Source: Tindallia magadiensis (GTDB lineage: Bacteria > Bacillota > Clostridia > Peptostreptococcales > Tindalliaceae). Taken from it: a DNA stretch of 48,485 nucleotides. How positions within the stretch are numbered: the first letter of the stretch is position 1; each line of letters opens with the position of its first letter. A program made the position numbers and the translations under genes. The stretch lies in the NCBI RefSeq assembly GCF_900113635.1, contig NZ_FOQA01000003.1:1-48485 (forward strand), given 5' to 3'. Under the pieces are notes generated by a model. It saw nothing but the letters and a program-made list of their open reading frames with translations. It did not search any database and was not told where the DNA came from. Positions 3,425 through 37,912 of this stretch are shown here, piece after piece.

Positions 3425-3425
3425 A

Positions 3426-8179: not shown

Positions 8180-8371
8180 TTGGCTAGAACATGTTTTGTT
8201 TGTAACAAAGGAAAAGTATTCGGTAACAGTGTTAGTCACTCGAATCGACATAATAAGCGAGTTTGGTTACCAAACCTGCGGAGAGTTAAAGCAGTGGTTG
8301 ACGGTTCTTCAAGAAGAGTCAATGTCTGCACTCGGTGCCTTCGGTCCGGAAAAATTCAAAGAGCTTTATAA
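8180..8371 (+). CDS. rpmB: 50S ribosomal protein L28
   Basis: (M)ARTCFVCNKGKVFGNSVSHSNRHNKRVWLPNL is the L28 signature. TTG start at 8180 with GGGAGG RBS 9 nt upstream. The track ORF 8156 extends past the RBS. Confidence 0.85.
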   Translation: MARTCFVCNKGKVFGNSVSHSNRHNKRVWLPNLRRVKAVVDGSSRRVNVCTRCLRSGKIQRAL

Positions 8372-8467
8372 GAAAATCAAAAAATCTGTAAAAACACAGC
8401 AGATAAAAACACAGCAAAAATCTCTTAACTGACAGTACTCAGCCTAAGGGATTTTTTGTTTTTGTAG

Positions 8468-8551
8468 AAAAATAGAATCAAAAAAATGAAATCAAAGGAA
8501 AAGAAAATAGAATCAAAGGAAAAGAAAATAGAATCAAAGGACAAGAAAATG
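8468..8551. repeat. About four tandem copies of a 21-bp unit (gaatcaaaggaaaagaaaata)
   Basis: Read directly. Near-perfect copies at 8489-8509, 8510-8530 and 8531-8551, with a degenerate copy before them. Lies between rpmB and sbcD. Confidence 0.6.
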
Positions 8552-8576
8552 AACATAGGATGGAGCGTGAAATAAG

Positions 8577-9737: not shown

Positions 9738-12700
9738 TTCTGAACCAGCTGACAATCCAGGCGCTGGGACCATATAAAGGAAAAGAAGTCATCGATTTTG
9801 ACTTATTAAATAAAGCACAGCTTTTTGCAATCTCCGGAAAGACAGGGGCTGGCAAAACCGCCATTTTTGATGGCATTTGCTATGCCCTTTACGGAAGAGC
9901 CAGTGGGCAACATCGTAGCAATGCAGAAGAATTGCGTTGCATCTATGCGGAAGATCAGGATTATACAGAGGCAAGTTTGGAATTTACAGTTCGTGGTTCT
10001 CGCTACCGAGCCCGTCGGCAGATGGGTCATATCAAGAAGAACAATAAAAGCAAAACGGGCGGTGGGATTGAACTTCACCGATGGATTTTTTTGAAAGAAA
10101 AAGAGGATTATGGCTGGGAATCCATGCTGGAATCCGGAAAAGTGAATGAAATGAACGAAAAAATCATGGCCCTAACCGGTTTAGACGTGGATCAGTTTCG
10201 GCAAATTGTCATGCTGCCTCAGGGAGAATTTGAAAAACTACTATTAGCAAAGGCAGAGGATAAAAAACGTATTTTACGCCAAATATTTCACACCAATCTG
10301 TATCAGCGGTTTACAGAAAAATTAGATCAGCGGAGAAAAGAAGTAGATCAGGAATATTTTCAGCTTCGTCAAAACCTTCGAAGTCGGGAAGATAGTTTGG
10401 AAGAATTACTTAAGGAAGAGGAAGCGTTGGAAAGCAATCTACTGCTAAAGGAAAAGGAACGAAATACCTACCAGTTGATGAAGGCCTTAGCAAAGGATAT
10501 GGACCGGTTAGAAGAAAGAAAAACAGGCTTGGAAACTCAATTGGAAAAACAGGACGAACTGATTCAAAAGGCAGACGAACACTATTACAAAGCCAAGGAA
10601 AACAATCGGAAATTAGAAGAACTGGAAGCGGAACGTCAAAAGATGAAGAGCCTTGAAGAACAACAGGAAAAAATGAAAAGCTGGCAACTTTCTCTGGAAG
10701 AAGCGGAAAAAGCCCAAAAAATCCAGCATTTTTATCAGCGAAAGAAAGAAACCGAAGAAACCTGCGTCCAAAAAACAAAGGTGCTGAAGGAGGCAAAAGA
10801 AGAAGCCGTCAGGGTGGAAGAAAAGAGGATACAAGCAGAGAAAGAATGGGAAGAAGAGGAAAAGAAGAAGCCTTACCGCAAAGAAATAGAAAAAGCTTAT
10901 GATCGGATCCTAGAAGCACTTCCAAAAGTAGAAGAACTATCCCGAAAAAAAGAGAGACTCCACTTAGGGCAAAAAGAAGCTGAAGCCTATGAAAAAAAGA
11001 TGGAGGACCTTTCACAACGGCAGGAGCTAGGGGAAAAAAGGCTAAAGGAACTTAGAAAAGAACAGGAGCAGGCCTCCGAAGCCTTAGAAAAAGAAGCGAA
11101 ACTTATTAAACAGCAAGCAAAGCTTCAGCAAGACTGCCAGGAACTTCAAGAGCTAATCCGAAGGAAGGAGGAGGAAAAACGTTTAAGCAAACAGAAGGAA
11201 AAAGCAGAGGCAAAGCTTAAGAGCGACAGGAAAGAAGCCCAGAAAGTAGAAGAAAAGTGGCTTAATAACCAAGCCAGATGGTTAGCGATGAACTTGCAGG
11301 AAGGGGAACCTTGTCCGGTTTGTGGCAGTTTGGAACATCCGGAGAAGGCAACTGGTACTGGGGAAGAAATCAACCGAAAAACCATGGAAGAAGCAAAAGA
11401 GAAGGAAAAAAAGGCCAACGACGCTTACGTTCAAGTAGCAACAAAATGGGAGACGGTTCGCACAGCCTTAGAAGAAGGACTACAAAAAAGAGAAGATCTG
11501 TTGGGCAAGAAGGACAAACTAGAAGACATTGAAAAAAGCAAGCAAGAAGAAAAACAAAGGCTTGACGAAGAACTGACAGCAATGGAAGTCCAGAGACAGA
11601 AATATGAGCAGGGGAAAGAAGCCCTGCGAAAAGGCGAAAAAGCATTACTGGAATTGACGGAAAAACACAAAGAAATGGGAGCGAAGCAACAAGAGCTGAC
11701 AGCGGAAATCGCAACCTTACAGGGGCAGGTGCAAAGCATCGAAGAAGCTTTGCCGGAGCATCTTTTAGAGCTAAAAGAATTGGAGAAGCAAAAGCAAAAC
11801 CTGGAAGCAAAGATAGAAGAAGCAAAAAAAGCTTACGAAAAGGCAGAAAGCCAATATAAGGATTGGCGAGAAAAACAAGCAGCCGCAACCGTGACCCTGG
11901 AATATGCGGATAAGAACCAAAAAGAAGCAAAGAAGGCGATGGAAAACGTAGCGGAACAATGGAAAGAAAAATTAGCTCAGGAAGGCTTTGAATCCATGGA
12001 GGCTTATGTAGCCGCCCATCGAACAGAAGAGAAAATGAAGAAACTTCGAGAAGCTTTGCAACAGTATAAAGAACAACGAAGCCTGACGGAAGAAAAGGTG
12101 AAAAGCTTAGAGATCCTTTTGAAGAAAGTGGAAAAAGAGGATCTGGAAGCCGTGCTTCATCATTGTCAACAATTGAGGCAGGAACAAAAGAAATACCAAA
12201 AGGAGCTAGGAAGAAAAGAAGCACTTCTGAGAGAAACCGGCAGCTTAAAAAGTTATATTGAAAAAGAATGGGAAAAAATGCAAGAAAGAGAAGAAGAACG
12301 AAATCGAATCGCTAACCTGTACCAATGTGCCAACGGGACAGGGAACGAACAAAAATTGGCGTTGGAAACCTATGTGCTACAACATTATTTTCATCGGGTA
12401 CTAAAAGCGGCCAATCTTCGATTGGATCAGCTAACCATGGGAAGGTACCGGCTGGTAGCAGATCAGGAGCGGGAAAAACATGGAGGACGCAGTGGGCTGG
12501 GCATTGATGTCATCGATGTTTTTAATGAACAGCAACGAAGTGTCCGGACATTTTCCGGCGGCGAAAAGTTTAATGCTTCCCTTTGTCTGGCCCTAGGTCT
12601 TTTTGATGTAATCCAAAGCGAAAGCGGCGGTACAGAAATGAAAACCATGTTTATTGACGAAGGTTTCGGCTCTCTTGATACACAGGAATCTTTACCTAAA

Positions 12701-16833: not shown

Positions 16834-17484
16834 ATGATTTTTCGCATTTTTGCCTTATATCGGGAACGGTCTTCTTTTTTTGTGGAGCTGTTTATCCAGC
16901 ATCTATATATAACGATGATTGCCGTTCTCTTCATTACGACTATTGGGCTGACCGTTGGAATCCTGATGACTCGGAATCGTTGGTTAGCAGGCGGAGTTCT
17001 TAGAGTCACCAGTTTTTTATATACCATTCCCTCTATTGCCCTCTTCGGCGTATTGGTATCCTTAACGGGAATAGGGCTGAAAAGTGCCTTAACCGCCATT
17101 GTATTGTATGGACTGCTTCCGATGATTCGCAGTACCTATACCGGGCTAAAAGAAGTGGATAGGGAGGTAGTGGAAGCAGCCGTTGGTATGGGCAGTACTC
17201 CTTGGCAATTGCTCTATCGGATTCAGCTTCCCCTGGCTTTTCCAGTGATTTTCAGCGGGTTTCGCACCATGGTGGTGATGACCATCGCTTTAGGTGGGAT
17301 TGCTTCTTTTATTGGTGCTGGAGGGATGGGGCGAGCCATTTGGCGCGGTATTTCAACCAATTTTCCGGAAATGACTATTGCTGGAAGTTTGCTAATCGCA
17401 GCTCTGGCAATTCTGGCGGATTGTCTATTGGAAATGATTGAAAAATTAGTACGTTATCGCTTTTTAGGAGAAGGAGGAAAATAA
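16834..17484 (+). CDS. ABC transporter permease, OpuC/OpuB-type (glycine betaine/choline/carnitine)
   Basis: Six-TM permease with the EAA-like loop region of the BPD_transp_1 family. RBS aagggggag. Confidence 0.75.
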   Translation: MIFRIFALYRERSSFFVELFIQHLYITMIAVLFITTIGLTVGILMTRNRWLAGGVLRVTSFLYTIPSIALFGVLVSLTGIGLKSALTAIVLYGLLPMIRSTYTGLKEVDREVVEAAVGMGSTPWQLLYRIQLPLAFPVIFSGFRTMVVMTIALGGIASFIGAGGMGRAIWRGISTNFPEMTIAGSLLIAALAILADCLLEMIEKLVRYRFLGEGGK

Positions 17485-17485
17485 A

Positions 17486-18463
17486 ATGAACAATGCAGAT
17501 GAAAAAAACATGATAAAAGGTAATTCTGAGAAAAACAATTGGCCTAAAAGACATATATTCCATAAAGTGGCCATCATACTACTCGTGATAACGCTGACAG
17601 CAGGAGTATTGGCAGCTTGCAGTGGCACAGCCGATGGCCAGGAAGAGCCTAAAAAAGTGGTGCTGGCCAGCAAGCCTATGACAGAGCAGTACATTCTGGC
17701 AGAAATCCTGACACTGCTGATTGAAGCAGAAACAGACATTGAAGTAGAACAAACCCTGGGAATCGGTGGAGGAACCTCCAATATTCATCCGGCCATGGAA
17801 AATGGCGAAATCGATCTGTATCCGGAATATACGGGCACCGGCTGGCTATTTGTATTAAAAGAAGAAGTGCTTCGGGATCCGGATGAGCTTTATGAAGCCG
17901 TAAAGGCTGCTTATAGGGAAGAATACGGCATTCACTGGTCTGGGCGCTATGGTCTGAATAATACCTATAGCATTGCCGTGACACCGGAAGCAGCAGAAAC
18001 CTACGACTTAAAGACGCTTTCAGATCTGGGAAAAGTCAGCCCGGAACTAACTTTTGCTGCCAACGCAGATTTTCTGGAACGGGATGATGGATATCCGGGG
18101 CTGGAAGAAACCTACGGCTTTGCCTTTGGGGATATAAAAGAAATAGATATCGGCCTTCGCTACCAGTCCATCCAGAGTGATGATATTGATGCCATTACCG
18201 TTTTTTCCACCGATGGTCAATTACAGGATGCGGATGTAGTCCTGTTGGAAGACGATAAGAACTTCTTTGTATTCTATGATGGTGCTACGCTGATCCGTCA
18301 GGAAACCTTGGACCGCTATCCGGAACTGGAAGAAGTGTTGGAAAAACTAACGGGTCTAATTCCTAATGAAGAAATGATTGCCATGAATTATGCCGTAGAA
18401 GTGGAAAACGAAGATCCGGCCAAAGTGGCTGAAGATTTCTTGCGGGAGAAGGGACTGCTGTAA
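17486..18463 (+). CDS. Quaternary-amine substrate-binding lipoprotein (OpuAC/OpuCC family)
   Basis: Lipobox LAAC after the signal peptide. Typical OpuAC-fold length. Sits between the permease and the ATPase. Confidence 0.75.
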   Translation: MNNADEKNMIKGNSEKNNWPKRHIFHKVAIILLVITLTAGVLAACSGTADGQEEPKKVVLASKPMTEQYILAEILTLLIEAETDIEVEQTLGIGGGTSNIHPAMENGEIDLYPEYTGTGWLFVLKEEVLRDPDELYEAVKAAYREEYGIHWSGRYGLNNTYSIAVTPEAAETYDLKTLSDLGKVSPELTFAANADFLERDDGYPGLEETYGFAFGDIKEIDIGLRYQSIQSDDIDAITVFSTDGQLQDADVVLLEDDKNFFVFYDGATLIRQETLDRYPELEEVLEKLTGLIPNEEMIAMNYAVEVENEDPAKVAEDFLREKGLL

Positions 18464-19291
18464 ATGGCTGTCATCGAATTTCAGAAAGTCACCAAAGCCT
18501 ACGGCGATGAAGGCGATGTGCTGAAAGGACTGGATCTGACCGTAGAAAAAGGAGAATTCCTCACGCTGTTGGGAGAATCTGGCTGTGGGAAAACCACGTT
18601 ACTGAAAATCATTAACCGGATGGTTTCTTTTGATACTGGCCATGTTTGGATCAGAGGACGACTTTTGAGTGAATGGGATATTGTCACTCTCCGTCGGGAA
18701 ATTGGTTACGTCATTCAACAAATTGGCCTTTTTCCCCATATGACGGTGATGAACAACGTGGCCTATGTCCTCTCTCTGCAGGGAATTCAAAAGCCGAAAC
18801 AGCGGCAGCGGGCTGAGGAACTGATGGAGCTGGTGGGTCTGCCCTGGGAATTTCTGAATCGCTATCCAAGAGAACTGAGTGGTGGGCAGCGTCAACGGGT
18901 AGGCGTGGCCAGAGCTCTGGCGGCCAGTCCAGAAATTATTCTGATGGACGAACCCTTCGGTGCTGTGGACGAACAGACCCGAAGCCTGCTGCAGGATGAA
19001 TTGCTGAAAATCCATCAGCAGCTAAAATGCACCATTATCTTTGTGACCCATGATATCCAAGAAGCCGTGAAACTGGGCAGCCGGATTGTGCTGATGAACA
19101 AAGGAATTATCGAACAGACCGGAACCAAGGAAGATTTAATCCTTCGGCCGGCAAATGATTTTGTTCGCCGCTTTATGGGAATCAAGGGCTTTATGGCATT
19201 GCTGGATGAAAAGGAAATGAAAGCTCTTTATCAGCAGGTACTGGAAGAGAAGATTAGCCTGGAAGAAGTTTATCGAAGTTTAACGGGTTAA
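18464..19291 (+). CDS. ABC transporter ATP-binding protein (short, no CBS domains)
   Basis: Walker A GESGCGKTT. Signature LSGGQRQRV. Walker B ILMDEPF. Only 275 aa, so it lacks the tandem CBS domains of OpuCA/OpuAA. Confidence 0.85.
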   Translation: MAVIEFQKVTKAYGDEGDVLKGLDLTVEKGEFLTLLGESGCGKTTLLKIINRMVSFDTGHVWIRGRLLSEWDIVTLRREIGYVIQQIGLFPHMTVMNNVAYVLSLQGIQKPKQRQRAEELMELVGLPWEFLNRYPRELSGGQRQRVGVARALAASPEIILMDEPFGAVDEQTRSLLQDELLKIHQQLKCTIIFVTHDIQEAVKLGSRIVLMNKGIIEQTGTKEDLILRPANDFVRRFMGIKGFMALLDEKEMKALYQQVLEEKISLEEVYRSLTG

Positions 19292-19312
19292 TAGATACAA
19301 ATACAATTATAA

Positions 19313-19342
19313 AGGCAGAGGCATAATGCTTCTGTCTTTTTG
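19313..19342 (+). terminator. Intrinsic terminator after the ABC operon
   Basis: aggcagagg-cataatg-cttctgtct (9 bp with 2 G:U pairs) followed by ttttt. Confidence 0.45.
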
Positions 19343-19458
19343 TTGTGCTTTAAAAATTACTCTTATAATGCTAATAGAAAATTTGGATAGTCTCAAACCA
19401 TTTATCCGATTGATAGAAAGGATCAGGGGTATTTTAGAAAGGATAGGAGGCGATAAGG

Positions 19459-21426
19459 ATGAGCCATCAAGAAAAAGAACGTGAGCTGGAAATAAATGAA
19501 AAAATGTATCGTGTCTATATGGATAAATCACCCTTAGGTATCTTTGTTACTAATGAGGAGGCACAATACATACGTGTTAACCCGGCTGGATGCCGGATGA
19601 CAGGATATACAGAAGAAGAACTTAAAAAGCTTACCATCGATGATCTTAGACCTCCAGAAACGAAGGATATGACTCTTCGGCTCAATGCAACAGAAGATGG
19701 TATGTTTACGGGAGAGTATATTGGTCTTAGAAAAAATGGGGAACGGTACTGGGGCCGTATTCATGCGGCACGAATTAATGAGAAAGAAAACATTGCGTTT
19801 TGCGAAGACATAACAGAGCAGAAAAAAGCAGAAGATAAAATTGTAAAGTTTTCCGAAATGCTTAAGGTTAAGAATGAGGAACTTGACGAGGCTGTTCAAA
19901 AAGCCGAAGCAGCCAATCAGACGAAAAGCAAATTTTTGGCTAATATGAGCCATGAAATTCGTACTCCTCTAAACGGGATTCTTGGGTTTTTACAACTCTT
20001 GGAAGAGACTGATATGGACCAGAAACAACAAGAATACCTTACCTATATTAAAACCAGCAGTGAAACCTTACTAACCATTATCAACGATATTTTAGATATA
20101 AGTAAAATAGAATCCGGTCAGTTAGAACTGGAACATATCGATTTTAACCTGAGCAGAACTTTGGAAGCTGCACTGGTTCCTATGTTTCAATCAGCCAGGG
20201 CAAAAGGCATAGACCTGAAGTTAGAGGTGGACTCTGAGGTACCTGCCTGGGTTAAAGGAGATCCTATCAGACTACGGCAAATTATCACGAATCTGGCAAG
20301 TAACGGCGTAAAGTTTACAGAAGAAGGAAGCGTTACCGTGTCCGTGCACCAGGTAGAAGCAAAGGATGAAACAACAACCGTTGAAATTCTTGTTACCGAT
20401 ACGGGTATAGGGATGAGTCAGGAAACGATAAAGAAAATATTTCAGCCTTTTTCACAGGCAGACAGTTCCAGCACTCGCAAATATGGTGGCACCGGATTGG
20501 GATTATCCATCTCCAGAGATTTAATCCATCTAATGAATGGAGAAATTCAGGCAGAAAGTCAATTAGGAAAAGGAAGTTGTTTTAAGGTGCGGATACCCTT
20601 TGAGAAAGGGGACGGGGAAAAGATTACCTATATCAGTGAAGAAATTTTGGGAGCGGAAAAAGAATGGAAAGATTCTAAAGTACTGGTAGTAGAAGATCAA
20701 GAGATAAACCTGGTGCTGGTGGAACAGGTACTGAAAAACATAGGGATTTCTTTTGATGTAGCAAGAAACGGGATTGAAGCTGTGAATGCTTTTTATAGAA
20801 AACAGCATGATTTAATCCTAATGGATATACAGATGCCAGTGATGGATGGACTGGAAGCAACTAAAAGAATTCGTTCGCTAAAAAACGTGCAACAGCCCTA
20901 TATTATTGCCATGACGGCTCATGTGATGCAAGAAAATATTAACCAGGCCTATGATGCAGGGATGGATGGATATATCCAAAAACCCATTGACTTGAAACAA
21001 ATGAAAGCTCTTTTTCGTAAAGAATCCACGGCTCAAAGATCAACTAAAGCTCAAAAGAAAGGGATCTTGTTTCATACAGACACAGACAAAGATGCAGAAA
21101 TAAAAGCAATGGTAACGGCCATGGTAACAGAAGCAGGGCTAGATAAAGACCTATCATTAGAACTATTGCAACAAGGGACAGCTATGTGGATCGATCAAGT
21201 TTGTCAGGCAGAAAAAGACTTGGCATCAGGAGATATGACATCCTTAAAACTTCTCTTTCATAATATGAAAGGAACGGCGGCTAATTTGCGGGTAAAAAAG
21301 CTGAGCGAAATGGCCACAGAAGCAGAGGCAAAAGTGATGGCAGAAGATATGAATGGTTTGCGAAAAAATCTGGCAGAAATAAAAACATATGTGAACAAAA
21401 TGAAGAATTTTTCGGCGGAAGAATAG
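19459..21426 (+). CDS. Soluble hybrid sensor histidine kinase (PAS-HisKA-HATPase-REC-Hpt)
   Basis: No TM segments. PAS region. H-box [15 protein letters not shown]-boxes DTGIGM and GGTGLGLSI. Receiver domain ([11 protein letters not shown]...[12 protein letters not shown]...KP). C-terminal Hpt ([12 protein letters not shown]). Confidence 0.85.
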
Positions 21427-21489
21427 AGGTTTCTGGGATAAAAGAAAAAGTTGCGGTTAAATGATTGGTGAAAGGTAGAGGTGAACGTT

Positions 21490-23187
21490 ATGAAAGTTCT
21501 GCATCTAACAAATAATAAAGAGGTTGATGAAAGCATAAGTGGCATTGTGAAAGAAAAAAACATGCTTTACTGCCTTGAAACATTAGATACGGAAAAAAAC
21601 GAAGAAAAGTGGATGAGGCACGATCCAGATATAATAATTATTGAAGCAGAGAAATTGAACCAAAGGATATATCAATTAGCCGATGATTTATTGAAAAGAG
21701 GGGAGGTAAAAGCGTACTTATTGGTGGTTATAAAGGAAGAGCATTGTAAAACCAAAGAAGCGTTAGTGGAAATTGGAGTTAGTGCTGTAATCAATCGAAA
21801 AAGATTTTTCAAGGAGAAACTATCAAAGCATTTAGACACCATTATAAAAGACAATCTATTTCTTCAGTCACTACGATGCATGCAAATTGCGGTAATTGAT
21901 GATAGTCGTTTTTCTTTAGAGGTGATGAAAGGCTTTTTCTTGAAATACGATATTTCAGAAGTGGATTATTTTGAAGATTCACTCGATTTTATAAAGGCTG
22001 AGAAAAAATATGATCTATATTTACTGGACTTAATGATGCCGGGATATGATGGGGACGACATTATTCATATGATTAGGCAAACTTGTCATAATGCGGTTAT
22101 TATTCTTATTACAAAGCATGAGAATAACAAACTCCTTTCTCATTGTATGGCCTTAGGGGCTGACGATTATTTGTTTAAGCCTGTGGATTATGTTTTACTG
22201 ATGCAACGAATTAATGATGCTTTTAATAAAAAAGAGAAAAACAAACAAATAGAAATAGCATCAAAAAAGCTCTATGAGTTAGCAACCAGAGATACACTAA
22301 CTGGATTACACAATCGGGAATTTTTCAATGAGTTTTACGAAGAGAAAGCCTTACAAGCAAAGCAGAAAGGGCATATTTTTTCATTAATACTGTTTGATTT
22401 GGATTATTTTAAGGAGATTAATGACAAGTATGGACATCAAAAGGGTGATTTGGTGTTAATTGAATTGGCTAAAACGGTTTCGAATCATTTGCGGGAGACA
22501 GATTTGATTGCACGTTGGGGTGGAGAGGAATTCTGCATTCTGCTACCCGATACTAATAAGGATGATGCGTTTACGATTGCTGAAGCGATAAGGCTGTCAA
22601 TTCAAAAAATGAAGATTGACGGTATTAGAAGCATTACAGCCAGTTTTGGGTTGACTCAATGGCAGGAAGGTGATGAAAAGGAATCGGCTTTCAAAAGAGT
22701 AGATCATTCACTATATATAGCAAAGTTAACAGGAAGAAATAAGACGGTTGTCGATAAAAAAACAAGATTGTTAGTAAAAGATCGACCGATTAAAATTGAA
22801 TGGTGTCCTTTTTTTAGAAGTGGAAACGATCGTATTGATAAGGATCATGAAGCATTAGTCCAAGCATCCAATAAAATAATAATGCATGCTCTTGATAGCA
22901 GCAAAACAGAAACAGTAAAAGGGATGTTCGCCGACTTGATTGACAAAGTGGTATTGCACTTTAGAAATGAAGAAAAGGTACTTGAAGAGCACCATTATGA
23001 AATGGTTAGTGACCATAAACAAAAACATCAGGAACTGGCTGTAAAAGCGGCGATGCTTCAAAATGATTTTACGAAAGGAAAAATAGATGCTACTGAATTA
23101 GCAGAATTTCTAATACAAGACGTTGTAATCGGTCATATGATAGATCATGATTTTTTATTTTTTCCTTTCCTTGAAAACTCCGAGTAA
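21490..23187 (+). CDS. Pseudo-receiver + receiver + GGDEF diguanylate cyclase + hemerythrin-like domain protein
   Basis: First REC-like domain lacks the acid pocket (acceptor position is E in DIIIIEAE). Second REC is canonical (IDDS...LLDLMMPG...LFKP). GGDEF domain with RWGGEEF. C-terminal hemerythrin His motifs (DKDHEAL, HFRNEE...EEHHYEM...HKQKH...IGHMIDHD). Confidence 0.8.
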   Translation: MKVLHLTNNKEVDESISGIVKEKNMLYCLETLDTEKNEEKWMRHDPDIIIIEAEKLNQRIYQLADDLLKRGEVKAYLLVVIKEEHCKTKEALVEIGVSAVINRKRFFKEKLSKHLDTIIKDNLFLQSLRCMQIAVIDDSRFSLEVMKGFFLKYDISEVDYFEDSLDFIKAEKKYDLYLLDLMMPGYDGDDIIHMIRQTCHNAVIILITKHENNKLLSHCMALGADDYLFKPVDYVLLMQRINDAFNKKEKNKQIEIASKKLYELATRDTLTGLHNREFFNEFYEEKALQAKQKGHIFSLILFDLDYFKEINDKYGHQKGDLVLIELAKTVSNHLRETDLIARWGGEEFCILLPDTNKDDAFTIAEAIRLSIQKMKIDGIRSITASFGLTQWQEGDEKESAFKRVDHSLYIAKLTGRNKTVVDKKTRLLVKDRPIKIEWCPFFRSGNDRIDKDHEALVQASNKIIMHALDSSKTETVKGMFADLIDKVVLHFRNEEKVLEEHHYEMVSDHKQKHQELAVKAAMLQNDFTKGKIDATELAEFLIQDVVIGHMIDHDFLFFPFLENSE

Positions 23188-23216
23188 AAGCGAATAAGCG
23201 AAACCTTCTTCTGGTT

Positions 23217-24044
23217 CTAAATATAAGAGTGAACCCAAAGAATTTCAGCTGGAATATCTCCTGGATTCAACCATTGGTGGATTCGAGTAGATTCAAAATT
23301 AATAGAATCCTTCTCCTTTAAAATAAACTCCTTGCTTTCATCTAAGATGACCTGCAATTGACCAGTCAGCACGGTGATGTAATCATGCCCACTATTGTGC
23401 TGATGCTTTTTTAGATCTCCACAATTTGGTTCAATTACAAATCGGACCACTTCAAAGGGTTGGCTTTTAATGGTGGTCTGCATTTCCATGTATACCCCTG
23501 TCAGGCTGGAAGGTAAGCTCTGTCCATGTTCATATTGCACTACTTCTGTTGCAGGTTTTTTCCTTTGAACGTCAAAAAAACGAATGGCACTTTCGTCAAA
23601 AAAAGCAGCCAGCTTTTCAATAATCTTATAAGATGCGTTTACTTTTCCTTGCTCCACTCGACTTAAATAAGATGGTGAAATATGAATAGCTTTTGCAACA
23701 TCGGACAGAGTATAGCCCATTTTTTTTCGGTATCTTTTCAAAGTTTCGTAATGATAATGAGGATATTCCATTTCTTTTTCCAGAGGAGTATGGTGCTCAT
23801 CTCGGCTCAACATTTCCTTAATAATCGATTGATTCAAGCCCTTATCCTGAGAATATTCCCGAATTCGTTTTAATAATTCTAGATCATGAAAATCAAAAAC
23901 CCGGTAATTGTTATTCCTTCGTTTGGGATGTATGAGACCGCTCCGTTCCCAGTTACGGAGAGTGGAAACTGAAATTCCTGTGAATTTTGCTGCTTCCTTA
24001 ATGCTGAACAGTCGGTAATCATGTTGGGATGCCTCTTTTGACAT
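23217..24044 (-). CDS. Transcriptional regulator with MerR-type HTH + XRE-type HTH + C-terminal cupin
   Basis: N-terminus FSIKEAAKFTGISVSTLRNWERSGLI (MerR HTH). Middle LSDVAKAIHISPSYLSRVEQG (XRE HTH). C-terminal beta-rich region with His residues. Divergent from kynU. Confidence 0.65.
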   Translation of the reverse strand: MSKEASQHDYRLFSIKEAAKFTGISVSTLRNWERSGLIHPKRRNNNYRVFDFHDLELLKRIREYSQDKGLNQSIIKEMLSRDEHHTPLEKEMEYPHYHYETLKRYRKKMGYTLSDVAKAIHISPSYLSRVEQGKVNASYKIIEKLAAFFDESAIRFFDVQRKKPATEVVQYEHGQSLPSSLTGVYMEMQTTIKSQPFEVVRFVIEPNCGDLKKHQHNSGHDYITVLTGQLQVILDESKEFILKEKDSINFESTRIHQWLNPGDIPAEILWVHSYI

Positions 24045-24257
24045 TTGCGATCAATCCATTTCATCATAATTTTCCTTGTTATCAAACAGGATTCCTTTTT
24101 CAAGGTGAATGCTTATCTCTAACAGTCTAAATCTATTATAACATGAGAAAAGAAGATAGGGAATTTGCGTAACATTATTAAATATATTGACTAGGTTATG
24201 CAAAGATGATAGACTGGTTTCAATAAAATCTGAAGATCGAAAATAAGGAGGAAAACA

Positions 24258-25538
24258 ATGAGACATTTTGAAACAACTTTGGAATTTTCGCGGGAAATGG
24301 ATAAAAAGGATTTGTTAAAATCCTATAAAGAAAGGTTTTACATGGAAAAAGGGGTTATTTATATGGATGGAAACTCCTGTGGTCTTTGTTCGATAGATGC
24401 GGAAGTTTACGTGATGAAAGCCTTGAAAGACTGGAAAAAATTTGGAATTGATCTTTGGACACATCCGGAAGCCAACTATTTTCTATACCAAGATAAGTTA
24501 GCTAAATTAATGGCTCCCCTCATTAACGCCAAGCCGGAAGAGGTAACTATCTGTACCAATACTACTATTAACATTCATAAAGCCCTAGCTACCTTTTATC
24601 AGCCTACTCCTCAGCGGTATAAAATCATTGTGGACGACCTGAACTTTCCCACGGATAAGTACGCCGTGGATAGTTTTGTTAAGCTGAAAGGCTTAGATCC
24701 GGAAACCGCTGTAAAAGTAGTTAAAAGCCGGGATGGCAAACAGATCTTTGAAGAAGATATGATTGAGGCCATGACCGAAGATGTAGCACTGATCCTACTG
24801 CCTTCGGTCCTTTACCGAAGTGCCTATTTAACAGATATGCAAAAAATTGCCGATGCTGCCAGGGAGAGAGGCATTTATGTCGGTTTTGATTTAAGTCACT
24901 CCATCGGCAGTGTTCCTCACGATTTTGAATCCCTAAACTGTGATTTCGCCGTATGGTGCAATTACAAATACGTAAACGGCGGTCCCGGAGCTATTGCTGG
25001 ACTCTATATCAACGAAAAGCACTTTTCAAAAGGACCCGGCTTGGCCGGATGGCAGGGTAACAACAAAGCAACTCAGTTTGACCTGAAACAAAGCTTTGAA
25101 CCGGCAGAATATGCTGGTGGATGGCAAACAGGAACTCAGCCTATTTTGAGCATGGCTCCCATCGAAGGCAGCCTTCGCATGTTCCAGGAGGCCGGCATCC
25201 ACAACATTCGTGAAAAATCCTTGAAGCTGACAGCATACATGATGTACTTAATTGATGAAAAGCTAAAAAAATTCGGGTTTTCTTATGGCAACCCAGCAGA
25301 AGATCAACGACGGGGCGGCCATGTGGCTTTGGAGCATGAGGAAGCCATTCGTATTAACAAAGCCATGAAGGATCGAAAAATCATTCCAGACTTTCGCTAT
25401 CCCAATATCATTAGACTAGCACCAGTAGCCTTTTATGTGTCCTTTGAGGACGTATATCGGATGGTGGAAATTATTGAAGACATTATGGAAACCAAAGCTT
25501 ATGAAGACTATGACGGCAGCCGGGGTACTGTCGCGTAA
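24258..25538 (+). CDS. kynU: Kynureninase
   Basis: GVIYMDGNSCG, DFAVWCNYKYVNGGPG, GWQTGTQPILS and RRGGHVALEH match kynureninase signature blocks (compare GVIYLDGNSLG and CTYKYLNGGPG). Confidence 0.85.
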   Translation: MRHFETTLEFSREMDKKDLLKSYKERFYMEKGVIYMDGNSCGLCSIDAEVYVMKALKDWKKFGIDLWTHPEANYFLYQDKLAKLMAPLINAKPEEVTICTNTTINIHKALATFYQPTPQRYKIIVDDLNFPTDKYAVDSFVKLKGLDPETAVKVVKSRDGKQIFEEDMIEAMTEDVALILLPSVLYRSAYLTDMQKIADAARERGIYVGFDLSHSIGSVPHDFESLNCDFAVWCNYKYVNGGPGAIAGLYINEKHFSKGPGLAGWQGNNKATQFDLKQSFEPAEYAGGWQTGTQPILSMAPIEGSLRMFQEAGIHNIREKSLKLTAYMMYLIDEKLKKFGFSYGNPAEDQRRGGHVALEHEEAIRINKAMKDRKIIPDFRYPNIIRLAPVAFYVSFEDVYRMVEIIEDIMETKAYEDYDGSRGTVA

Positions 25539-25692
25539 AACTATGAGTTTGAATAAATTTTTAAGTTAAAGATGAACATTAAAAAAAATGTGTTTAGATA
25601 TTTTGGGAGGGGGGTAAAAAGAAATTGTCTTGCATCGAAGAAAATCGATTTGTTAAAGACAATATACTGTAAATAGGAGGCAAAGAAACAAA

Positions 25693-28600
25693 ATGAAATT
25701 CACAAAAAGAAAAATTCAAAGCATTTCGGTTTTATTGGTCTTATTTTTATTATTGCCTATGTTTGGGCAAATCCTGCCGGAAGGATGGTTGAAATATTTT
25801 CCGGATGGGATGACGGTGACGGCGGATACTTATGGGAGTGGATCGGTGACGGATGCGGTATATGGAGATCAATTTATAACGGATATACGTTTTACAAAGC
25901 CGGGTGGTCCAGATGATCTCAGCGAAAACCTAGATCCCTTAGAAGAGCCGGTTTCAAAAGATGCAGAGTTCCGAATTACGTACTATTTTGAAATACCGAA
26001 CACAATGGATGTTAAGGAAGGGGAATCTTTTACGATAACCATTCCTGAAGAGATCCAGAAAATCAACAATCAGTTTGAGGCACCTTTAAATGACGATAAT
26101 GGAAACACCATTGCAAATGCCACCTATTACACTGATAATCGGGTAGAAATAATCTTTACGGACTATGTAGAGAACGAAGGCCTGGGCGATATTAGTGGAT
26201 ATTTTTGGATTCAAAGGAGATTTGAGGAGTCTGCAATAGGCAACGAAGGAGAAACAGACATTATTTTTGATCTGAATGGAGAGAGTACCTTTGTTGTAAC
26301 CGTTGTATTTGAAACGATGGATGAAGAAACTCATATGGGGGTCAATAAAAGCAATAGTTACAGTGCTGAGAATAACGAAATAACTTGGATCGTAACAATT
26401 ACCCCTAGCACTTCGCCAACATCTAATTTACCTATAGAAAATGTGGTGTTCAAGGACGTTATTGAAGATAATCAGAATTTTGTTGATGACTCACTAACGA
26501 TAACATCAAATATTGCTGGTTGGATTTCAGATGATAAAGTAACGGTTATCTTGCCTGATACAGGGAATAACAACGAGTTGAAAATTGAGTTTAATGAAGC
26601 GGTCAACACAGAAACGGACGAAGAATACACCATTACTTTTAAAACAAATCCGGACATTTCTGGCTTTGCGGCGGAAGGAGATAGCGTTGCTTTTGAGAAC
26701 ACAGCTGTAGTAGAGTATCGGGATGTTCATAGTGGAGAAGTTGAAAGTGAAGAAGATAGCTCTACCAGAAATATTACAGCTAACTTTATCCAAAAATTCG
26801 GCAGTTATAATCAAGCTGAAAAACGGATAGACTGGACGATCACTATTAATAATAATTATTTTGAAATCCCTGCAGGTGCAGAGATTATCGATGAAATACC
26901 GGAAGGACTAACGCTACTTGAAAATAGTATTAGACTAGATGATGGGGGTCCTTTAACCATTAATAATGACGACGGACCATTAAAGTATAATCAAGATGGT
27001 TTGGATCCCGGAGTAGAGGGAATTTTATCCTATACTTTTGAAGAGGCATTGACTGGACCACATACATTGACCTACTCCACAGAGGTAACGGATGAAGATG
27101 CCTACACTTCCAACGATGCGACTACTTTTACCAATAAAGCCAGTCTGGAAGGAACTGGATTGATTGAGGCTCCCTCTATCGGTGTAGGTGTTGATGCTAC
27201 TACCAATATCATTCGAAAAACCAGCCCAGGATTCGATGCGGCCAATCAAGAAATAACATGGCAGATAGTAGTCAATGAGAACGAAATAGAAATTGAAAAC
27301 CCAGTAGTGACAGACACCATACCGGATGGCTTGGTATATGTGGAGAATTCTTTTGCTGTAAATGGTGATCAAACCAATACTGGATTTGATTACGATGAGG
27401 CAACCAATACATTCACTTATGATTTTGAAGGCATTAAGGATGGGGATCATAAGATTCATACAACCTATACATTAACCTTTAAAACAAGGGCAGTAAATAA
27501 TACGGATTACGCCGTGAACAAAACAACACCTTTTATCAATAGGGCTGTGCTGACAGGGGAAAACATCGAAACAACAGAAGATACAGCTACCCGTAACTAT
27601 ATTAGTCGTGTGATACAGAAAGATGGAGTGGATTATGACTATGTAGAAAAAATTGTTACATGGAGAATTCGAGTCAATCATAACGAGATGGAAATGACCA
27701 ATGCTCGTGTCGAAGATGTAATCGAACCTGGCTTTGCTTTCATACCAGGGTCTGTCACGATTAATAACGCTCCAGCTACTGAAAGGTCAGGTGTTGGAGA
27801 AGGTTATGAATATGATGAAGACACAAAAAAACTGACTTATCATTTTCCGGGCACCATTAACACATTACAGGAAATAACTTTCCAAACTGAAATAACAGAT
27901 CTATCCATTTTCGAAACCAATGGACCAATAAATGCTGAAAATACGGCAACATTGTTTGGCGACGAAATCCCTAGTGATAATGTGTCAGATACTGGCACCC
28001 AGGAGATAGTTCGTACTCTGGTGGAGAAAATCGGGAATTATGAAAATGGAGACTCCTATATCGAGTGGGATGTAGTAGTCAATAGAGACCAGTTGGAAAT
28101 AAGCAATCCAGTGTTAACAGATGAACTGCAGGAAGGTCTGGAATTGGATACGGCAACCATTCAGCTGAACCACTTGACTATTGCATCTGATGGAAGCTAT
28201 ACCATAGGAGATGAAGTGCCGCTGGAGGCAGAAAACATAGAGTACAATCCGGGAACTAGAGAGTTTACGTTTCGTTTTAATCAGGACATCGACAGTGCGT
28301 ATCTGCTGAGGTTTCAAACGGATATCGCCAGCGGGTATCATAATGCCACTTTCAGCAACGAAATTCAATTTGCTGGCAGCCATGGCGAAGAAAGCAGCAC
28401 ATCTTCCAGTATTCAAGTGGAAGTACAGACTGTTGGCGGAGGTGCGTCTGGAAGCAACGGAAGTATTACCGTTACAAAAATAGATGAGAATAACACATCT
28501 ATTAAACTGCAAGGGGCTGTTTTTCAGCTCTATGACCGTTTTGGTATGGAGTTAGGAGAAAGCAAGGAAACAGATGTAGAAGGCGAAGTACTGTTTGACA

Positions 28601-30369
28601 GCCTGAAATTCGACATTCCTTATACCGTGAAAGAAGTAACGCCACCGGAAGGTTATTATATGGCAGATGGTCAGGGAGAGTATACCTTCACTCTTACAAG
28701 CGGCGATAAAGACATCACCTATACCTTTGAAAATTCCAGAATTACAGGTAATATTCAATTTCAAAAAGTAGATGCAGACACGGAAAACTCCGTTGAAGGC
28801 GCTGTATTTAATCTTTATGAAAGCTCGGATGAAAACACGGTTATCGCTACAGCAACCAGTGATGAGGATGGACTTGTCACTTTTGAAAATGTGGGCTATG
28901 GAAACTATGTGATTAAAGAAGATGCACCAGCAACAGGCTACTTAATAACAGAAGAAACATTGGAAGCCAATGTTTCTGAAAAAGACGTGACTGTATTTGC
29001 TGGTCCTGCTGGCAATGAAGCTGAAAGATTTAAGCTGGAAAATCAGGTCATGAAGGGCAGCTTACAGATGACGAAAGTGGATGCGGAAGATAACAACCGC
29101 AAGCTAGAAGGAGCTACTTTCGAGCTGTTCAGAAAAAGCGGTGACATTTTCGTAAGCACAGGAATAACCGTGATGACGGATGAAAATGGGTTTGCTGAAA
29201 TAACAGATTTACCTTATGGTGACTACATTCTGCGAGAAATAACAGCGCCGGATGGATATTACCTGAGCAGTGAAGATCAGAACTTCAAAATAGAGAGCCA
29301 TGAAGAAATTGTTGTGATTGAAGTGGAGAACGACAAAATTCCGGAAGGAAATTTAGTCATCAACAAGCTGGATGCATTAAGCAAGATCGGAATTCCTGGA
29401 GTGGAATTTGAAGTGTACAACCAGGATGGGGATCTAGTAACCACCATCACCACCGATGGAGATGGTATGGCAGAAGCAGAAAGCCTATTTGTAGGAACAG
29501 AAGGTGAGTTCGCCACTTATACCCTTAAAGAAAGCGTAACGCCTGATGGATATCATCCTTCGGAAGAAGATAAAATCATTACTATTGAAGAAGGTACTGG
29601 CAATGCTTTTACCATCGAAAACCAACCCTACCGAGGACTGGAAATCATCAAAATTGATAGTAGAGATGAAACAAGAAGGCTGGAAGGTGCTATTTTCAGT
29701 CTCTATAGAAAAAATGGCATCAATGGTGATCCGATCAGAGAAGAAAAAATAACCGACGAGAACGGAAAATTACAGTTTGAATCACTGGAGTTTGGAGAGT
29801 ATCTCTTAAGAGAAACACAGGCTCCTTCCGGGTATCGGCTGAATTCAGAAGTTATGGAAATTCTTATAGATGAAGAAAGTCCTGGAACAATCAGTATCGA
29901 ATGGCCCAACACCCGCCGACCTACTGGCGGTGGCGGTGGAGGTACACCTCAAACTCCTGAGCCAGAAACACCAGGAGAAGAAACTGAGGGACAGCCAGAA
30001 ACACCCAGTAATCCTCCTACGGATGGAACTATTGAGATTCCAGAGGCAGATATACCGCTGGTAATTGTTCCACCAGAAAACGGTACCGTAGAAATCGATG
30101 AAGATGGTAATTGGACTTACACACCAGATCCGGGATATAACGGAAAAGATCGTTTTACAGTTCGAATTATTCGTGAGGATGGTACAGAAGAAGAGGTTGT
30201 TATAGAAATTGATCCAGATCCCATCCCAGAAGGAGGCATATTGATTCCAGATGTTCCGGAATTGCCGCAAACTGGTGAATCTCACCCAGCTAAAATGATA
30301 ATACTAGGCCTTCTACTGAGTCTTATAGGAATAATACTAAATCAAAAATTTGGGAGAAAAAGAGTATAA
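25693..30369 (+). CDS. LPXTG-anchored giant surface adhesin with repeated N-terminal Ig-like domains and about five CnaB-type (SpaA isopeptide) repeats
   Basis: Signal peptide. Four to five approximately 150-aa repeats (I[TED]W.I.VN...E[IM]...). CnaB-like repeats (ITVTKIDENN...GAVFQLYD; IQFQKVDADT...GAVFNLYE; LQMTKVDAEDN...GATFELFR; LVINKLDALS...GVEFEVYN; LEIIKIDSRDE...GAIFSLYR). Pro/Gly/Thr linker. DEDGNWTYTPDPGYNGKDRFTV Ig-like/VCBS-type motif. LPQTGE + hydrophobic segment + KRV tail. Confidence 0.85.
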   Translation: MKFTKRKIQSISVLLVLFLLLPMFGQILPEGWLKYFPDGMTVTADTYGSGSVTDAVYGDQFITDIRFTKPGGPDDLSENLDPLEEPVSKDAEFRITYYFEIPNTMDVKEGESFTITIPEEIQKINNQFEAPLNDDNGNTIANATYYTDNRVEIIFTDYVENEGLGDISGYFWIQRRFEESAIGNEGETDIIFDLNGESTFVVTVVFETMDEETHMGVNKSNSYSAENNEITWIVTITPSTSPTSNLPIENVVFKDVIEDNQNFVDDSLTITSNIAGWISDDKVTVILPDTGNNNELKIEFNEAVNTETDEEYTITFKTNPDISGFAAEGDSVAFENTAVVEYRDVHSGEVESEEDSSTRNITANFIQKFGSYNQAEKRIDWTITINNNYFEIPAGAEIIDEIPEGLTLLENSIRLDDGGPLTINNDDGPLKYNQDGLDPGVEGILSYTFEEALTGPHTLTYSTEVTDEDAYTSNDATTFTNKASLEGTGLIEAPSIGVGVDATTNIIRKTSPGFDAANQEITWQIVVNENEIEIENPVVTDTIPDGLVYVENSFAVNGDQTNTGFDYDEATNTFTYDFEGIKDGDHKIHTTYTLTFKTRAVNNTDYAVNKTTPFINRAVLTGENIETTEDTATRNYISRVIQKDGVDYDYVEKIVTWRIRVNHNEMEMTNARVEDVIEPGFAFIPGSVTINNAPATERSGVGEGYEYDEDTKKLTYHFPGTINTLQEITFQTEITDLSIFETNGPINAENTATLFGDEIPSDNVSDTGTQEIVRTLVEKIGNYENGDSYIEWDVVVNRDQLEISNPVLTDELQEGLELDTATIQLNHLTIASDGSYTIGDEVPLEAENIEYNPGTREFTFRFNQDIDSAYLLRFQTDIASGYHNATFSNEIQFAGSHGEESSTSSSIQVEVQTVGGGASGSNGSITVTKIDENNTSIKLQGAVFQLYDRFGMELGESKETDVEGEVLFDSLKFDIPYTVKEVTPPEGYYMADGQGEYTFTLTSGDKDITYTFENSRITGNIQFQKVDADTENSVEGAVFNLYESSDENTVIATATSDEDGLVTFENVGYGNYVIKEDAPATGYLITEETLEANVSEKDVTVFAGPAGNEAERFKLENQVMKGSLQMTKVDAEDNNRKLEGATFELFRKSGDIFVSTGITVMTDENGFAEITDLPYGDYILREITAPDGYYLSSEDQNFKIESHEEIVVIEVENDKIPEGNLVINKLDALSKIGIPGVEFEVYNQDGDLVTTITTDGDGMAEAESLFVGTEGEFATYTLKESVTPDGYHPSEEDKIITIEEGTGNAFTIENQPYRGLEIIKIDSRDETRRLEGAIFSLYRKNGINGDPIREEKITDENGKLQFESLEFGEYLLRETQAPSGYRLNSEVMEILIDEESPGTISIEWPNTRRPTGGGGGGTPQTPEPETPGEETEGQPETPSNPPTDGTIEIPEADIPLVIVPPENGTVEIDEDGNWTYTPDPGYNGKDRFTVRIIREDGTEEEVVIEIDPDPIPEGGILIPDVPELPQTGESHPAKMIILGLLLSLIGIILNQKFGRKRV

Positions 30370-32126: not shown

Positions 32127-32249
32127 GCTAAAAACAGGGGAGCTGATTGTTCAGAATCCGTAAGGGTATCTTTAGAAGAAGCAAGGATCTACTAAGAAGT
32201 AAAAAGAGAGGTGTGCTTAAGTGCATTCAAAAGTTGCGGAGGTGGTGGA

Positions 32250-33449
32250 ATGAACATATATGCGGCTCGTCAGCCTATTTTCACTAGGAAGGAAGAAGTT
32301 TTTGGCTATGAACTGCTGCACCGAAAAACAGAAGAAAATCGGTTTATGGGGACGGACCACACAGAAGCAACAGCAGAACTGATTAACAACACTTTTCTAA
32401 GTATTGGTATACAAGAATATTCCAGTAATAAAAGGCTCTTTATTAATTTCTCCAGAGATTTGATTGTCAGCAAAGTGCCGATGCTTTTGCCAAAAGAGCT
32501 GATCGTTGTTGAAATTCTAGAAGATGTTGAAATAGACAAAGAGTTGGTAGAAGCCTGTCAGGAACTAAAGGAAGCTGGATATCTTTTAGCACTGGATGAT
32601 TTTGTTTTTCGAGAAGGCTACGAAGAACTGATTCCTCTAGCAAGCATTATTAAAACAGAATACGGCAGCTATTCGCCGGCAGAACATCAGAAATTGGTTC
32701 AGCAGTATGGAAACAAAATTTTGTTGGTGGAAAGAGTGGAAACAAGAGAGGAATTTGAAGAGCTGGTAGGGTATGGATACCATCTTTTTCAAGGATTTTT
32801 TTTCAGCAAACCAATTATGATGAAAGGGAAGGAAGTACCACCCTTTAACCCGGTTTTATTGCAAGTGATCGAAGAACTCAATAAAGAAGATCCACGATAC
32901 GATCTGATTGCACAAAAAATAGAGAATGACCTTTCGCTGACCTATAAATTTTTAAAACTAGCCAATACCATTCAATTCGGTTCAAAATTTCCTGTTGATA
33001 CAGCCAAGGAAGCCATGGTGAGAATAGGCTTAGAAAGCATTCGGAAATGGATTTATATTTTGATGTTACAGGATATAAAATTCAACCAAAATAGCGAAAT
33101 GATTACCAACAGCTTAATACGAGCAAAAATGATGGAAATGATTGCTGAGCATCAAAAGAATAAAAAAAGCCACTTCTTTTTAGCTGGATTGTTTTCTGAA
33201 CTAGATGCCATTACGGGAAAACCCTTTGAAATTCTGGCAGAGGAGTTACCTTTATCTCCTGAGGTGGAAAAAGCGTTACTCCGAAAAGGTGGCAAAGTGA
33301 TGGAAATGCTTTACTACATTTTGAACTTTGAGAAGGGAAAATTGGTCAGTCGGGATTATGTGTTGAAAAATGGAAAAGAAGAACTGAATCTATCCGATGT
33401 GTATCAGTATTCCATTGAATGGTCCAATAAACTGTTAGAACTGAAATAA
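32250..33449 (+). CDS. EAL-domain + HDOD-domain signalling protein
   Basis: N-terminal EAL-like domain (QPIFTRKEEVFGYELLHR ... VVEILED ... LALDDFV). C-terminal HDOD-like region. RBS ggaggtggtgg with ATG 32250. The track start 32211 is upstream of the RBS. Confidence 0.65.
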   Translation: MNIYAARQPIFTRKEEVFGYELLHRKTEENRFMGTDHTEATAELINNTFLSIGIQEYSSNKRLFINFSRDLIVSKVPMLLPKELIVVEILEDVEIDKELVEACQELKEAGYLLALDDFVFREGYEELIPLASIIKTEYGSYSPAEHQKLVQQYGNKILLVERVETREEFEELVGYGYHLFQGFFFSKPIMMKGKEVPPFNPVLLQVIEELNKEDPRYDLIAQKIENDLSLTYKFLKLANTIQFGSKFPVDTAKEAMVRIGLESIRKWIYILMLQDIKFNQNSEMITNSLIRAKMMEMIAEHQKNKKSHFFLAGLFSELDAITGKPFEILAEELPLSPEVEKALLRKGGKVMEMLYYILNFEKGKLVSRDYVLKNGKEELNLSDVYQYSIEWSNKLLELK

Positions 33450-37893: not shown

Positions 37894-37912
37894 TATTTTA
37901 AGCCCTGGGAGG

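Follow-up and report, generated by a model that had tools for sequence, protein, structure and literature searches.

Organization of the locus

The DNA analysed here comprises the first 48,485 nucleotides of contig NZ_FOQA01000003.1 (assembly GCF_900113635.1) of Tindallia magadiensis, an alkaliphilic anaerobe of the Clostridia, and is referred to below as the window. Two adjacent genes on its forward strand are the subject of this work, one encoding a hybrid histidine kinase and the other a diguanylate cyclase, the type of enzyme that makes cyclic di-GMP (c-di-GMP), which ends in a hemerythrin domain. The corresponding open reading frames (ORFs) were listed in the window at 19459–21426 and at 21481/21490–23187. 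The first gene (19459–21426, +) encodes a soluble kinase of 655 amino acids, and the second (21490–23187, +) encodes a response-regulator diguanylate cyclase of 565 amino acids with the hemerythrin domain at its C-terminus. Both products matched NCBI entries exactly, WP_093370907.1 for the kinase and WP_093370909.1 for the cyclase, and the latter already carries the NCBI name 'diguanylate cyclase (GGDEF) domain-containing protein/hemerythrin-like metal-binding domain protein'.

Two start codons were considered for the cyclase. The GTG at 21481 was rejected in favour of the ATG at 21490, because the GTG falls within the ribosome-binding site, a Shine-Dalgarno sequence (GAGGTG) that lies upstream of the ATG, and because the 565 amino acid product of the ATG start equals the NCBI protein. 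The intergenic spacer measured from this start is 63 nt long (21427–21489, +) and has the Shine-Dalgarno sequence inside it.

A hairpin scan located a terminator-like hairpin with a T-run at 19311–19339 (+), consisting of a 13-bp stem with five GC pairs and then TTGTTGTGCT. This hairpin closes the operon of an OpuA-type betaine ATP-binding cassette (ABC) transporter, which is situated directly 5′ of the kinase gene (16834–19291, +), and delimits the kinase/cyclase unit on its 5′ side. A perfect TATAAT hexamer was read by eye at 19364–19369 (+), ∼90 nt 5′ of the kinase ATG; the −35 sequence partnering it is weak (TTGTTG, 18-nt spacer), the hexamer was missed by a consensus promoter scan, and it is regarded as a candidate −10 element only. 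Downstream of the cyclase lies a convergent gene (23217–24044, −), the 275 amino acid product of which is an unusual triple fusion of a MerR helix-turn-helix (HTH), an XRE HTH and a cupin domain.

Domain architecture of the cyclase

Domains were called by Pfam profiles and by NCBIfam models with curated equivalog cut-offs. In the cyclase, a canonical receiver was recovered at residues 133–241 (21886–22212, +; Response_reg, E 1e-22) with the residues D137, D138, D180, T208 and K230, followed by a GGDEF diguanylate cyclase domain at residues 265–418 (22282–22743, +; Pfam, E 2e-44). R335-E-T-D338-LIARW-G344GEEF348 is the sequence from I-site to active site, with the RxxD motif five residues before GGEEF. 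An AlphaFold model of the protein had a mean predicted local distance difference test (pLDDT) score of 86, and in this model a continuous helix (residues 234–266; 22189–22287, +) runs from α5 of the receiver into the GGDEF domain. The best Foldseek match of the whole model was PleD, a REC-REC-GGDEF protein (453 columns), and WspR (3BRE) and DgcR (6ZXB) were also among the top structural matches, at 28–31% identity. The PleD family NF007135 was the best NCBIfam match, yet it scored 210 bits against a cut-off of 474, while the DgcR equivalog scored 150 bits against a cut-off of 500; the cut-offs of other equivalog models were not reached either. Judged by these sequence features, the protein is a response-regulator diguanylate cyclase with an intact receiver, active site and I-site, and enzymatic activity is predicted.

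The segment in front of the canonical receiver (residues 1–129; 21490–21876, +) had no Pfam match, and a phmmer search with it against 1.84 billion representative proteins retrieved only the protein itself; its status as a separately recognisable family was therefore rejected. The AlphaFold model gave this segment a (βα)5 fold of five strand-helix units (pLDDT 71–92), and hhalign placed it in register with the protein's own receiver over 102 columns (E 1.4e-4). The fold and the in-register profile alignment, together with PleD as the best Foldseek match, identify the segment as a degenerate receiver-like domain. In the profile alignment the DD pair corresponds to N8-N9, the acceptor D to E52, the T to I81 and the K to R103. 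Since there is no acidic pocket and a Glu occupies the acceptor position, this N-terminal receiver cannot be phosphorylated. In some receivers, a Glu there acts as a mimic of the phosphorylated state.

The hemerythrin domain occupies residues 438–561 (22801–23172, +; Pfam match to residues 445–561, E 3e-8). The iron ligands H453, H490, E494, H509, H513, H549 and D554 (pattern H, HxxxE, HxxxH, HxxxxD) were aligned in register and one for one with those of the Methylococcus bacteriohemerythrin 4XPX. The profile scores were 34.5 bits for PF01814 (25.3 needed) and 69.8 bits for TIGR02481 (51.75 needed), and similarity was detected to the Methylococcus bacteriohemerythrin (E 2e-9) and weakly to DcrH-Hr (E 0.013). 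In the AlphaFold model the domain forms a four-helix bundle (helices 447–467, 470–500, 506–528 and 534–564; pLDDT ∼84–90), which is joined to the GGDEF domain by an N-terminal loop, W438-G-P-F-F-x-S-G445.

The receiver, the GGEEF cyclase and the hemerythrin were recovered in the order claimed by the original prediction, which had been made from the DNA letters and ORF translations. Its N-terminal pseudo-receiver with acceptor position E and no DD pocket was also borne out (E52 and N8-N9), both motifs that it had proposed for checking were intact (R335xxD338 and G344GEEF348), and the hemerythrin, described there as having intact His ligands, had the full metal-ligand set on alignment.

A conserved family and a reusable GGDEF-hemerythrin cassette

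Proteins with the same domain content as the cyclase formed ∼45 clusters at 90% identity, with lengths of 554–613 amino acids, at least 83% query coverage and 36–44% identity. Their sources include Fusibacter bizertensis, Pectinatus haikarae, a Megamonas metagenome-assembled genome and many metagenomes. The four-domain order, which had been called unusual, is in fact that of a conserved family in anaerobic Firmicutes.

Nineteen members with an overall identity of 35–43% were aligned. D137, D180, T208 and K230 were invariant in all 19, as were R335, D338, the GGEEF motif and all seven iron ligands, and D138 was retained in 18, with a single Asn in the remaining sequence. N311, D320, R342, K412 and G415 were also invariant columns in the GGDEF alignment, and the loop between the GGDEF and hemerythrin domains was nearly invariant. 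Invariance at this low overall identity is a signature of purifying selection on the phospho-acceptor, catalytic and iron-ligand functions. The four-domain cyclase is real and well conserved and, by its domain content, a putative multi-input protein.

The mean identity differed by domain, at ∼20% for the degenerate receiver, 43% for the canonical receiver, 53% for GGDEF and 37% for hemerythrin. The degenerate receiver therefore diverges far faster than the remaining domains and still has Glu at its acceptor position in 12 of the 19 aligned members, while Asp was found at this position in only two.

The GGDEF-hemerythrin tail was also found behind PAS, dCache and PilJ sensors, where the seven ligands were again invariant (12/12), and its range takes in Bacillales, Lachnospiraceae, Spirochaetes, Myxococcota and Proteobacteria. 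Its occurrence behind varied sensor domains marks the tail as a reusable two-domain cassette. A search of an available literature collection yielded no account of REC-GGDEF-hemerythrin or GGDEF-C-terminal-hemerythrin proteins, nor of Tindallia signalling. On one metagenome scaffold, two four-domain cyclase paralogues were found in tandem (locus positions 6001–7692 and 7796–9490), adjoining an [FeFe]-hydrogenase/NADH-dehydrogenase-like cluster.

The hybrid kinase

The Pfam order of the kinase is PAS, HisKA, HATPase_c, Response_reg, Hpt. The PAS sensor domain lies at residues 16–120 (19504–19818, +; PAS_9 at residues 25–120, E 7e-13; PAS fold, E 7e-8) and is followed by the kinase core (HisKA at residues 156–220 and HATPase_c at residues 267–382; 19924–20604, +; Pfam, 1e-23 and 6e-31). 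The core has H165 in SHEIRTP, N278, a G1 box at D314–G318 (DTGIG) and a G2 box at G344–L349 (GTGLGL). The kinase's internal receiver (residues 408–518; 20680–21012, +; Response_reg, 1e-26) keeps E412, D413, D456, T486 and K508, and the Hpt domain (residues 580–647; 21196–21399, +) carries H601 in HNMKG and scored 26.4 bits in Pfam against a cut-off of 24.6. The maximum Kyte-Doolittle hydropathy in a 19-residue window was 1.15, so the protein has no transmembrane segment. The domains, key residues and hydropathy agree with its earlier description as a PAS hybrid kinase lacking a transmembrane segment and having its own receiver and Hpt domains.

The TorS and ArcB models were aligned to the kinase as far as its C-terminus, Hpt included. 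No equivalog cut-off was reached (BarA, 429 against 890 bits; TorS, 400 against 676.5; ArcB, 322 against 838), and the protein is therefore a generic unorthodox kinase of the HK-REC-Hpt type, similar to BarA, TorS and ArcB.

The gene order beside two relatives of the kinase was inspected. In Anoxynatronum sibiricum, the gene after that of the nearest relative encodes a receiverless PAS-GGDEF protein (locus positions 6001–11026), and on a metagenome contig a relative is followed by two HD-GYP-like HD_5 proteins, also without a receiver (locus positions 6001–11591). The presence of c-di-GMP enzymes beside both of these relatives hints at a linkage to c-di-GMP, but neither locus is the same system as that of T. 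magadiensis.

Comparison with characterised systems

PleD of Caulobacter (PDB 1W25/2V0N/2WB4) likewise combines one phosphorylatable and one degenerate CheY-like domain with GGEEF and an RxxD motif. In PleD the phosphorylatable receiver precedes the adaptor receiver, whereas in the T. magadiensis cyclase the degenerate domain comes first, the active receiver abuts GGDEF, and a hemerythrin is added. DgcR of Leptospira (PDB 6ZXB/6ZXM) and WspR of Pseudomonas (PDB 3BRE/3I5A) have the same receiver-helix-GGDEF join, but the T. magadiensis protein has an extra degenerate receiver at the N-terminus and the hemerythrin at the C-terminus. By analogy with these proteins, activation of the DgcR/WspR type, in which phosphorylation drives a rearrangement of the dimer, appears likely in the T. 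magadiensis cyclase.

The characterised hemerythrin sensors are DcrH, VcBhr-DGC, Bhr-HD-GYP and the P1B-5 ATPases (PMC9388753, PMC8846402). The original prediction stated that hemerythrin-diguanylate cyclases are known, and VcBhr-DGC of Vibrio cholerae (VC1216; Schaller et al. 2012) is the precedent; according to summaries of that work (PMC9388753, PMC8846402), it shares with the T. magadiensis cyclase a 5 His/Glu/Asp hemerythrin and a competent GGDEF domain. In both proteins c-di-GMP synthesis would be expected to follow the redox state of the di-iron centre. In VcBhr-DGC the hemerythrin is N-terminal and directly before GGDEF, and there is no receiver, while in T. magadiensis the hemerythrin is C-terminal. 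The hemerythrin match (residues 445–561) comes after GGDEF (residues 265–418), the reverse of the order that defines Bhr-DGC, and it is hemerythrin at the N-terminus with GGDEF at the C-terminus that is the commonest GGDEF fusion (PMC4919030). The C-terminal position of the hemerythrin and the two receiver-like domains at the N-terminus mean that the route of coupling must differ from that in VcBhr-DGC.

A last-domain hemerythrin with a loop fused to the output domain is found in another anaerobe, in DcrH of Desulfovibrio vulgaris (PDB 2AWY/2AWC), although the output of DcrH is a chemoreceptor (methyl-accepting chemotaxis protein) signalling domain and that of the T. magadiensis protein is a diguanylate cyclase. 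DcrH was the first bacterial hemerythrin example, and its C-terminal hemerythrin undergoes redox-dependent ordering of the N-terminal loop (PMC9388753). Anaerobes, Clostridia among them, frequently have hemerythrins (PMC4919030), and the host of DcrH is itself anaerobic (PMC9388753), which weakens the suggestion that the architecture is unusual for an anaerobe. A survey of 2008 did not report chimeric hemerythrins in Firmicutes (PMC2556348), and in 2016 single-domain forms made up 91.6% of hemerythrin sequences in the group of early-branching bacteria and Firmicutes (PMC4919030). Chimeras with CheY-like and PAS/GGDEF domains and hemerythrin-GGDEF chimeras are given only in aggregate in these surveys (PMC2556348, PMC4919030).

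The combination of an Hpt kinase with such a cyclase, also considered unusual at first, has a counterpart in Hk1-Rrp1 of Borrelia burgdorferi, in which the gene of a hybrid kinase (HK core, REC and Hpt) likewise lies beside that of a REC-GGDEF regulator, and which is regarded as one phosphorelay from operon structure and genetics (PMC4013479). Hk1 is bound to the membrane and has its sensor domains in the periplasm, in contrast to the soluble T. magadiensis kinase with its one PAS domain, and Rrp1 lacks both the degenerate receiver and the hemerythrin of the T. magadiensis cyclase (PMC4013479). Every domain and each pairwise domain combination in the two proteins is already known, and the domains are already named in database annotation. 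The single mechanistically interesting point is the position of the sensor, C-terminal relative to GGDEF.

Candidate signals for the hemerythrin

An O2 or redox switch is not the only role that a hemerythrin in this position might have. The domain might instead report iron availability through its apo and holo forms, as in FBXL5-type hemerythrins, bind nitric oxide (NO), or serve mainly to dimerise or stabilise the cyclase constitutively, and sequence cannot discriminate between these candidate signals. No oxy adduct was observed for either VcBhr-DGC or Bhr-HD-GYP (PMC9388753), which favours such other roles; both of these characterised hemerythrin c-di-GMP enzymes are, on the other hand, redox-regulated (PMC9388753, PMC8846402), and in VcBhr-DGC the activity of the diferrous form is 10-fold that of the diferric form (PMC9388753).

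In the T. magadiensis protein, Val546 aligns with the tunnel-gating Leu114 of the Methylococcus hemerythrin, and the family has Val, Ile or Ala here. In work on Leu114 mutants, a smaller residue reportedly tips the balance from stable binding of O2 towards access of solvent and fast autoxidation. On that analogy the smaller residue, while counting against a stable O2 carrier, would favour rapid autoxidation and hence sensing of the redox type. The domain also matched the model for the O2-binding type (TIGR02481) above its cut-off, and not just the broad HHE model, and the invariance of seven ligands, both in the four-domain family and in the wider cassette, exceeds structural need. A hemerythrin that serves something other than O2 or redox sensing is considered quite improbable.

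A proposed two-gene signalling unit

Our preferred reading, in which we place moderate confidence, is that the two genes form one signalling unit, in which the output of c-di-GMP integrates a cue sensed by the kinase with the intracellular redox or O2 status. With its single PAS domain, the soluble kinase would detect a cue in the cytoplasm and autophosphorylate at H165, and the phosphoryl group would pass to D456 of the kinase receiver and on to H601 of the Hpt domain. Judging from the adjacency of the genes alone, H601 would then donate it to D180 of the cyclase. As in DgcR, WspR and PleD, the phosphorylated receiver would rearrange the dimer through helix 234–266, so that the two GGEEF domains meet and c-di-GMP is made. 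The degenerate N-terminal receiver would most likely be a dimerisation or adaptor module comparable to the second receiver of PleD, with the order reversed.

The hemerythrin di-iron centre, if it behaves as in VcBhr-DGC and DcrH, would be diferrous under normal anoxia and would become diferric on contact with O2 or oxidants. The conserved loop at the start of the hemerythrin follows directly on the GGDEF domain, and its redox-dependent ordering may then alter cyclase activity; the reduced form would most probably be the active one. The intact RxxD I-site predicts product inhibition at the sequence level. We infer that the protein binds iron, what it senses, in which direction it is regulated and that the kinase passes its phosphoryl group to the cyclase. 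It is reasonable to infer by analogy with DgcR/WspR, VcBhr-DGC and DcrH that synthesis would be dually gated, by phosphorylation and by redox state or O2. The dual gating first proposed, with an O2, NO or iron signal, is less firm than it was put, as homology neither tells O2, redox state, NO and iron apart nor gives the sign of the effect.

The layout of the two genes is consistent with a single transcript. No hairpin was found in the 63-nt gap, and a terminator or attenuator between the genes was therefore rejected; the fold of the spacer (minimum free energy −11.2 kcal/mol, z = 0.70) was no better than that of shuffled sequence. The pair is bracketed by the upstream terminator-like hairpin and the convergent downstream gene. 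With an unstructured gap between genes on the same strand and a terminator-like hairpin only upstream, co-transcription of kinase and cyclase is plausible.

Several observations weigh against the two-gene unit or against parts of it. Gene tables of eight other loci of the cyclase family were inspected, and the kinase core, receiver and Hpt served as tblastn queries against every locus retrieved; no HisKA/HATPase or Hpt was found within ∼6 kb at any of the eight, one of which has the two tandem cyclase paralogues instead. Among 5.8 billion proteins the search for kinase orthologues retrieved only generic hybrid kinases with other architectures, the best at 39–42% identity, and the pairing was seen in the T. 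magadiensis genome only. For the hemerythrin, the Pfam score is moderate (34.5 bits), and the score for the bacteriohemerythrin model NF033749 (69.5 bits) is below its cut-off of 84. The inter-domain geometry of the cyclase model is unreliable (predicted template-modelling score, pTM, 0.58). Finally, the sensor is N-terminal in the only characterised hemerythrin-cyclase, so that neither the mechanism nor the sign of coupling can be transferred with confidence.

With no kinase at the eight other loci, conserved kinase-cyclase synteny was rejected and lends no support to a cognate pair. By the same result, most members of the family are orphan regulators, and the true donor may be encoded elsewhere. 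Adjacency in T. magadiensis might accordingly be coincidental, the cyclase being phosphorylated by kinases encoded elsewhere or by acetyl phosphate and the kinase serving another regulator; the internal logic of the cyclase would be unchanged. The absence of kinase domains around the other family genes, the lack of a kinase orthologue co-occurring with the four-domain cyclase, and the Anoxynatronum sibiricum locus, where the kinase relative precedes a receiverless PAS-GGDEF protein, all fit this explanation. So does a promoter-like site with 10/12 matches within the 3′ end of the kinase gene (21235–21264), but such sites were no commoner than in shuffled sequence (20 against 19.7 expected). 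The coincidence has also to be set against two genes on one strand, 63 nt apart with neither terminator nor structure between them and bracketed as a pair, and against a kinase ending in Hpt, which needs an external receiver, the nearest being that of the cyclase. On balance, coincidental adjacency is judged rather unlikely. Of the 'dedicated' Hpt kinase in the original prediction, the adjacency stands, but the dedication is weakened by the eight loci and by the want of an orthologue above ∼42% identity. The pairing is therefore lineage-specific and, judged by adjacency only, plausible.

A more specific form of the two-gene unit can be proposed tentatively, and we regard it as doubtful. The GGDEF-hemerythrin tail might represent a distinct class of cyclase, in which the redox sensor acts from the C-terminal side via the WGPFFxSG loop and not through an N-terminal signalling helix. 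Together with the phosphorylation input and the Glu-bearing, 'locked-on-like' pseudo-receiver, it might form an AND gate, giving c-di-GMP only when the kinase cue coincides with a reduced interior, and a dedicated soluble phosphorelay would then have taken over this gate in T. magadiensis.

If the two-gene reading is correct, strict anaerobes of the Clostridia and Negativicutes would couple c-di-GMP, a messenger of biofilm formation and motility, to O2 or redox status and to a phosphorelay in one polypeptide. A C-terminal sensor would, moreover, require a control of GGDEF unlike the N-terminal-helix paradigm of PleD, WspR, DgcR and VcBhr-DGC. The cyclase is soluble and only 565 amino acids long, and a candidate cognate kinase is present in the genome, which makes it a convenient system for two-input control of GGDEF.

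Neighbouring genes

Two further genes in the window have possible connections to c-di-GMP. An LPXTG collagen-binding adhesin of 1558 amino acids (25693–30369, +), with Big_8, five Collagen_bind and five SpaA repeats, is encoded 2.5 kb downstream of the cyclase. Adhesins of the LPXTG kind are under c-di-GMP riboswitch control in Clostridioides. A c-di-GMP riboswitch as a local read-out, for example upstream of this adhesin, was rejected, as Rfam searches detected none at gathering scores in the whole window and none at E ≤5 in 19000–26000. An EAL-HDOD protein of 412 amino acids is encoded 9 kb downstream of the cyclase (32211–33449, +); it has a partial EAL match in Pfam (42.7 bits) and the motifs YELLHR, ALDDF and QGFFFSKP, and from its sequence it could be a c-di-GMP phosphodiesterase or receiver near the cyclase. 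The adhesin and the EAL-HDOD protein are possibly c-di-GMP-related, and neither was linked to the kinase/cyclase pair.

The remaining features concern other functions. A thiamine pyrophosphate (TPP) riboswitch (70.4 bits; 1919–2030, +) precedes a thiW-thiD-thiM-thiE thiamine salvage operon (2055–4911). A corrinoid methyl-transfer cluster (34968–42640, +) encodes a CobW/URO-D fusion, three URO-D-like methyltransferases, a B12-binding protein and a RACo activase, and with the OpuA-type transporter it may belong to a pathway for demethylation of methylated amines or betaine. On the reverse strand (5762–8000, −), an N6/N4 DNA methylase (6942–8000) is followed by a 397 amino acid ORF (5762–6955) with no Pfam match, and the two may constitute a restriction-modification pair.

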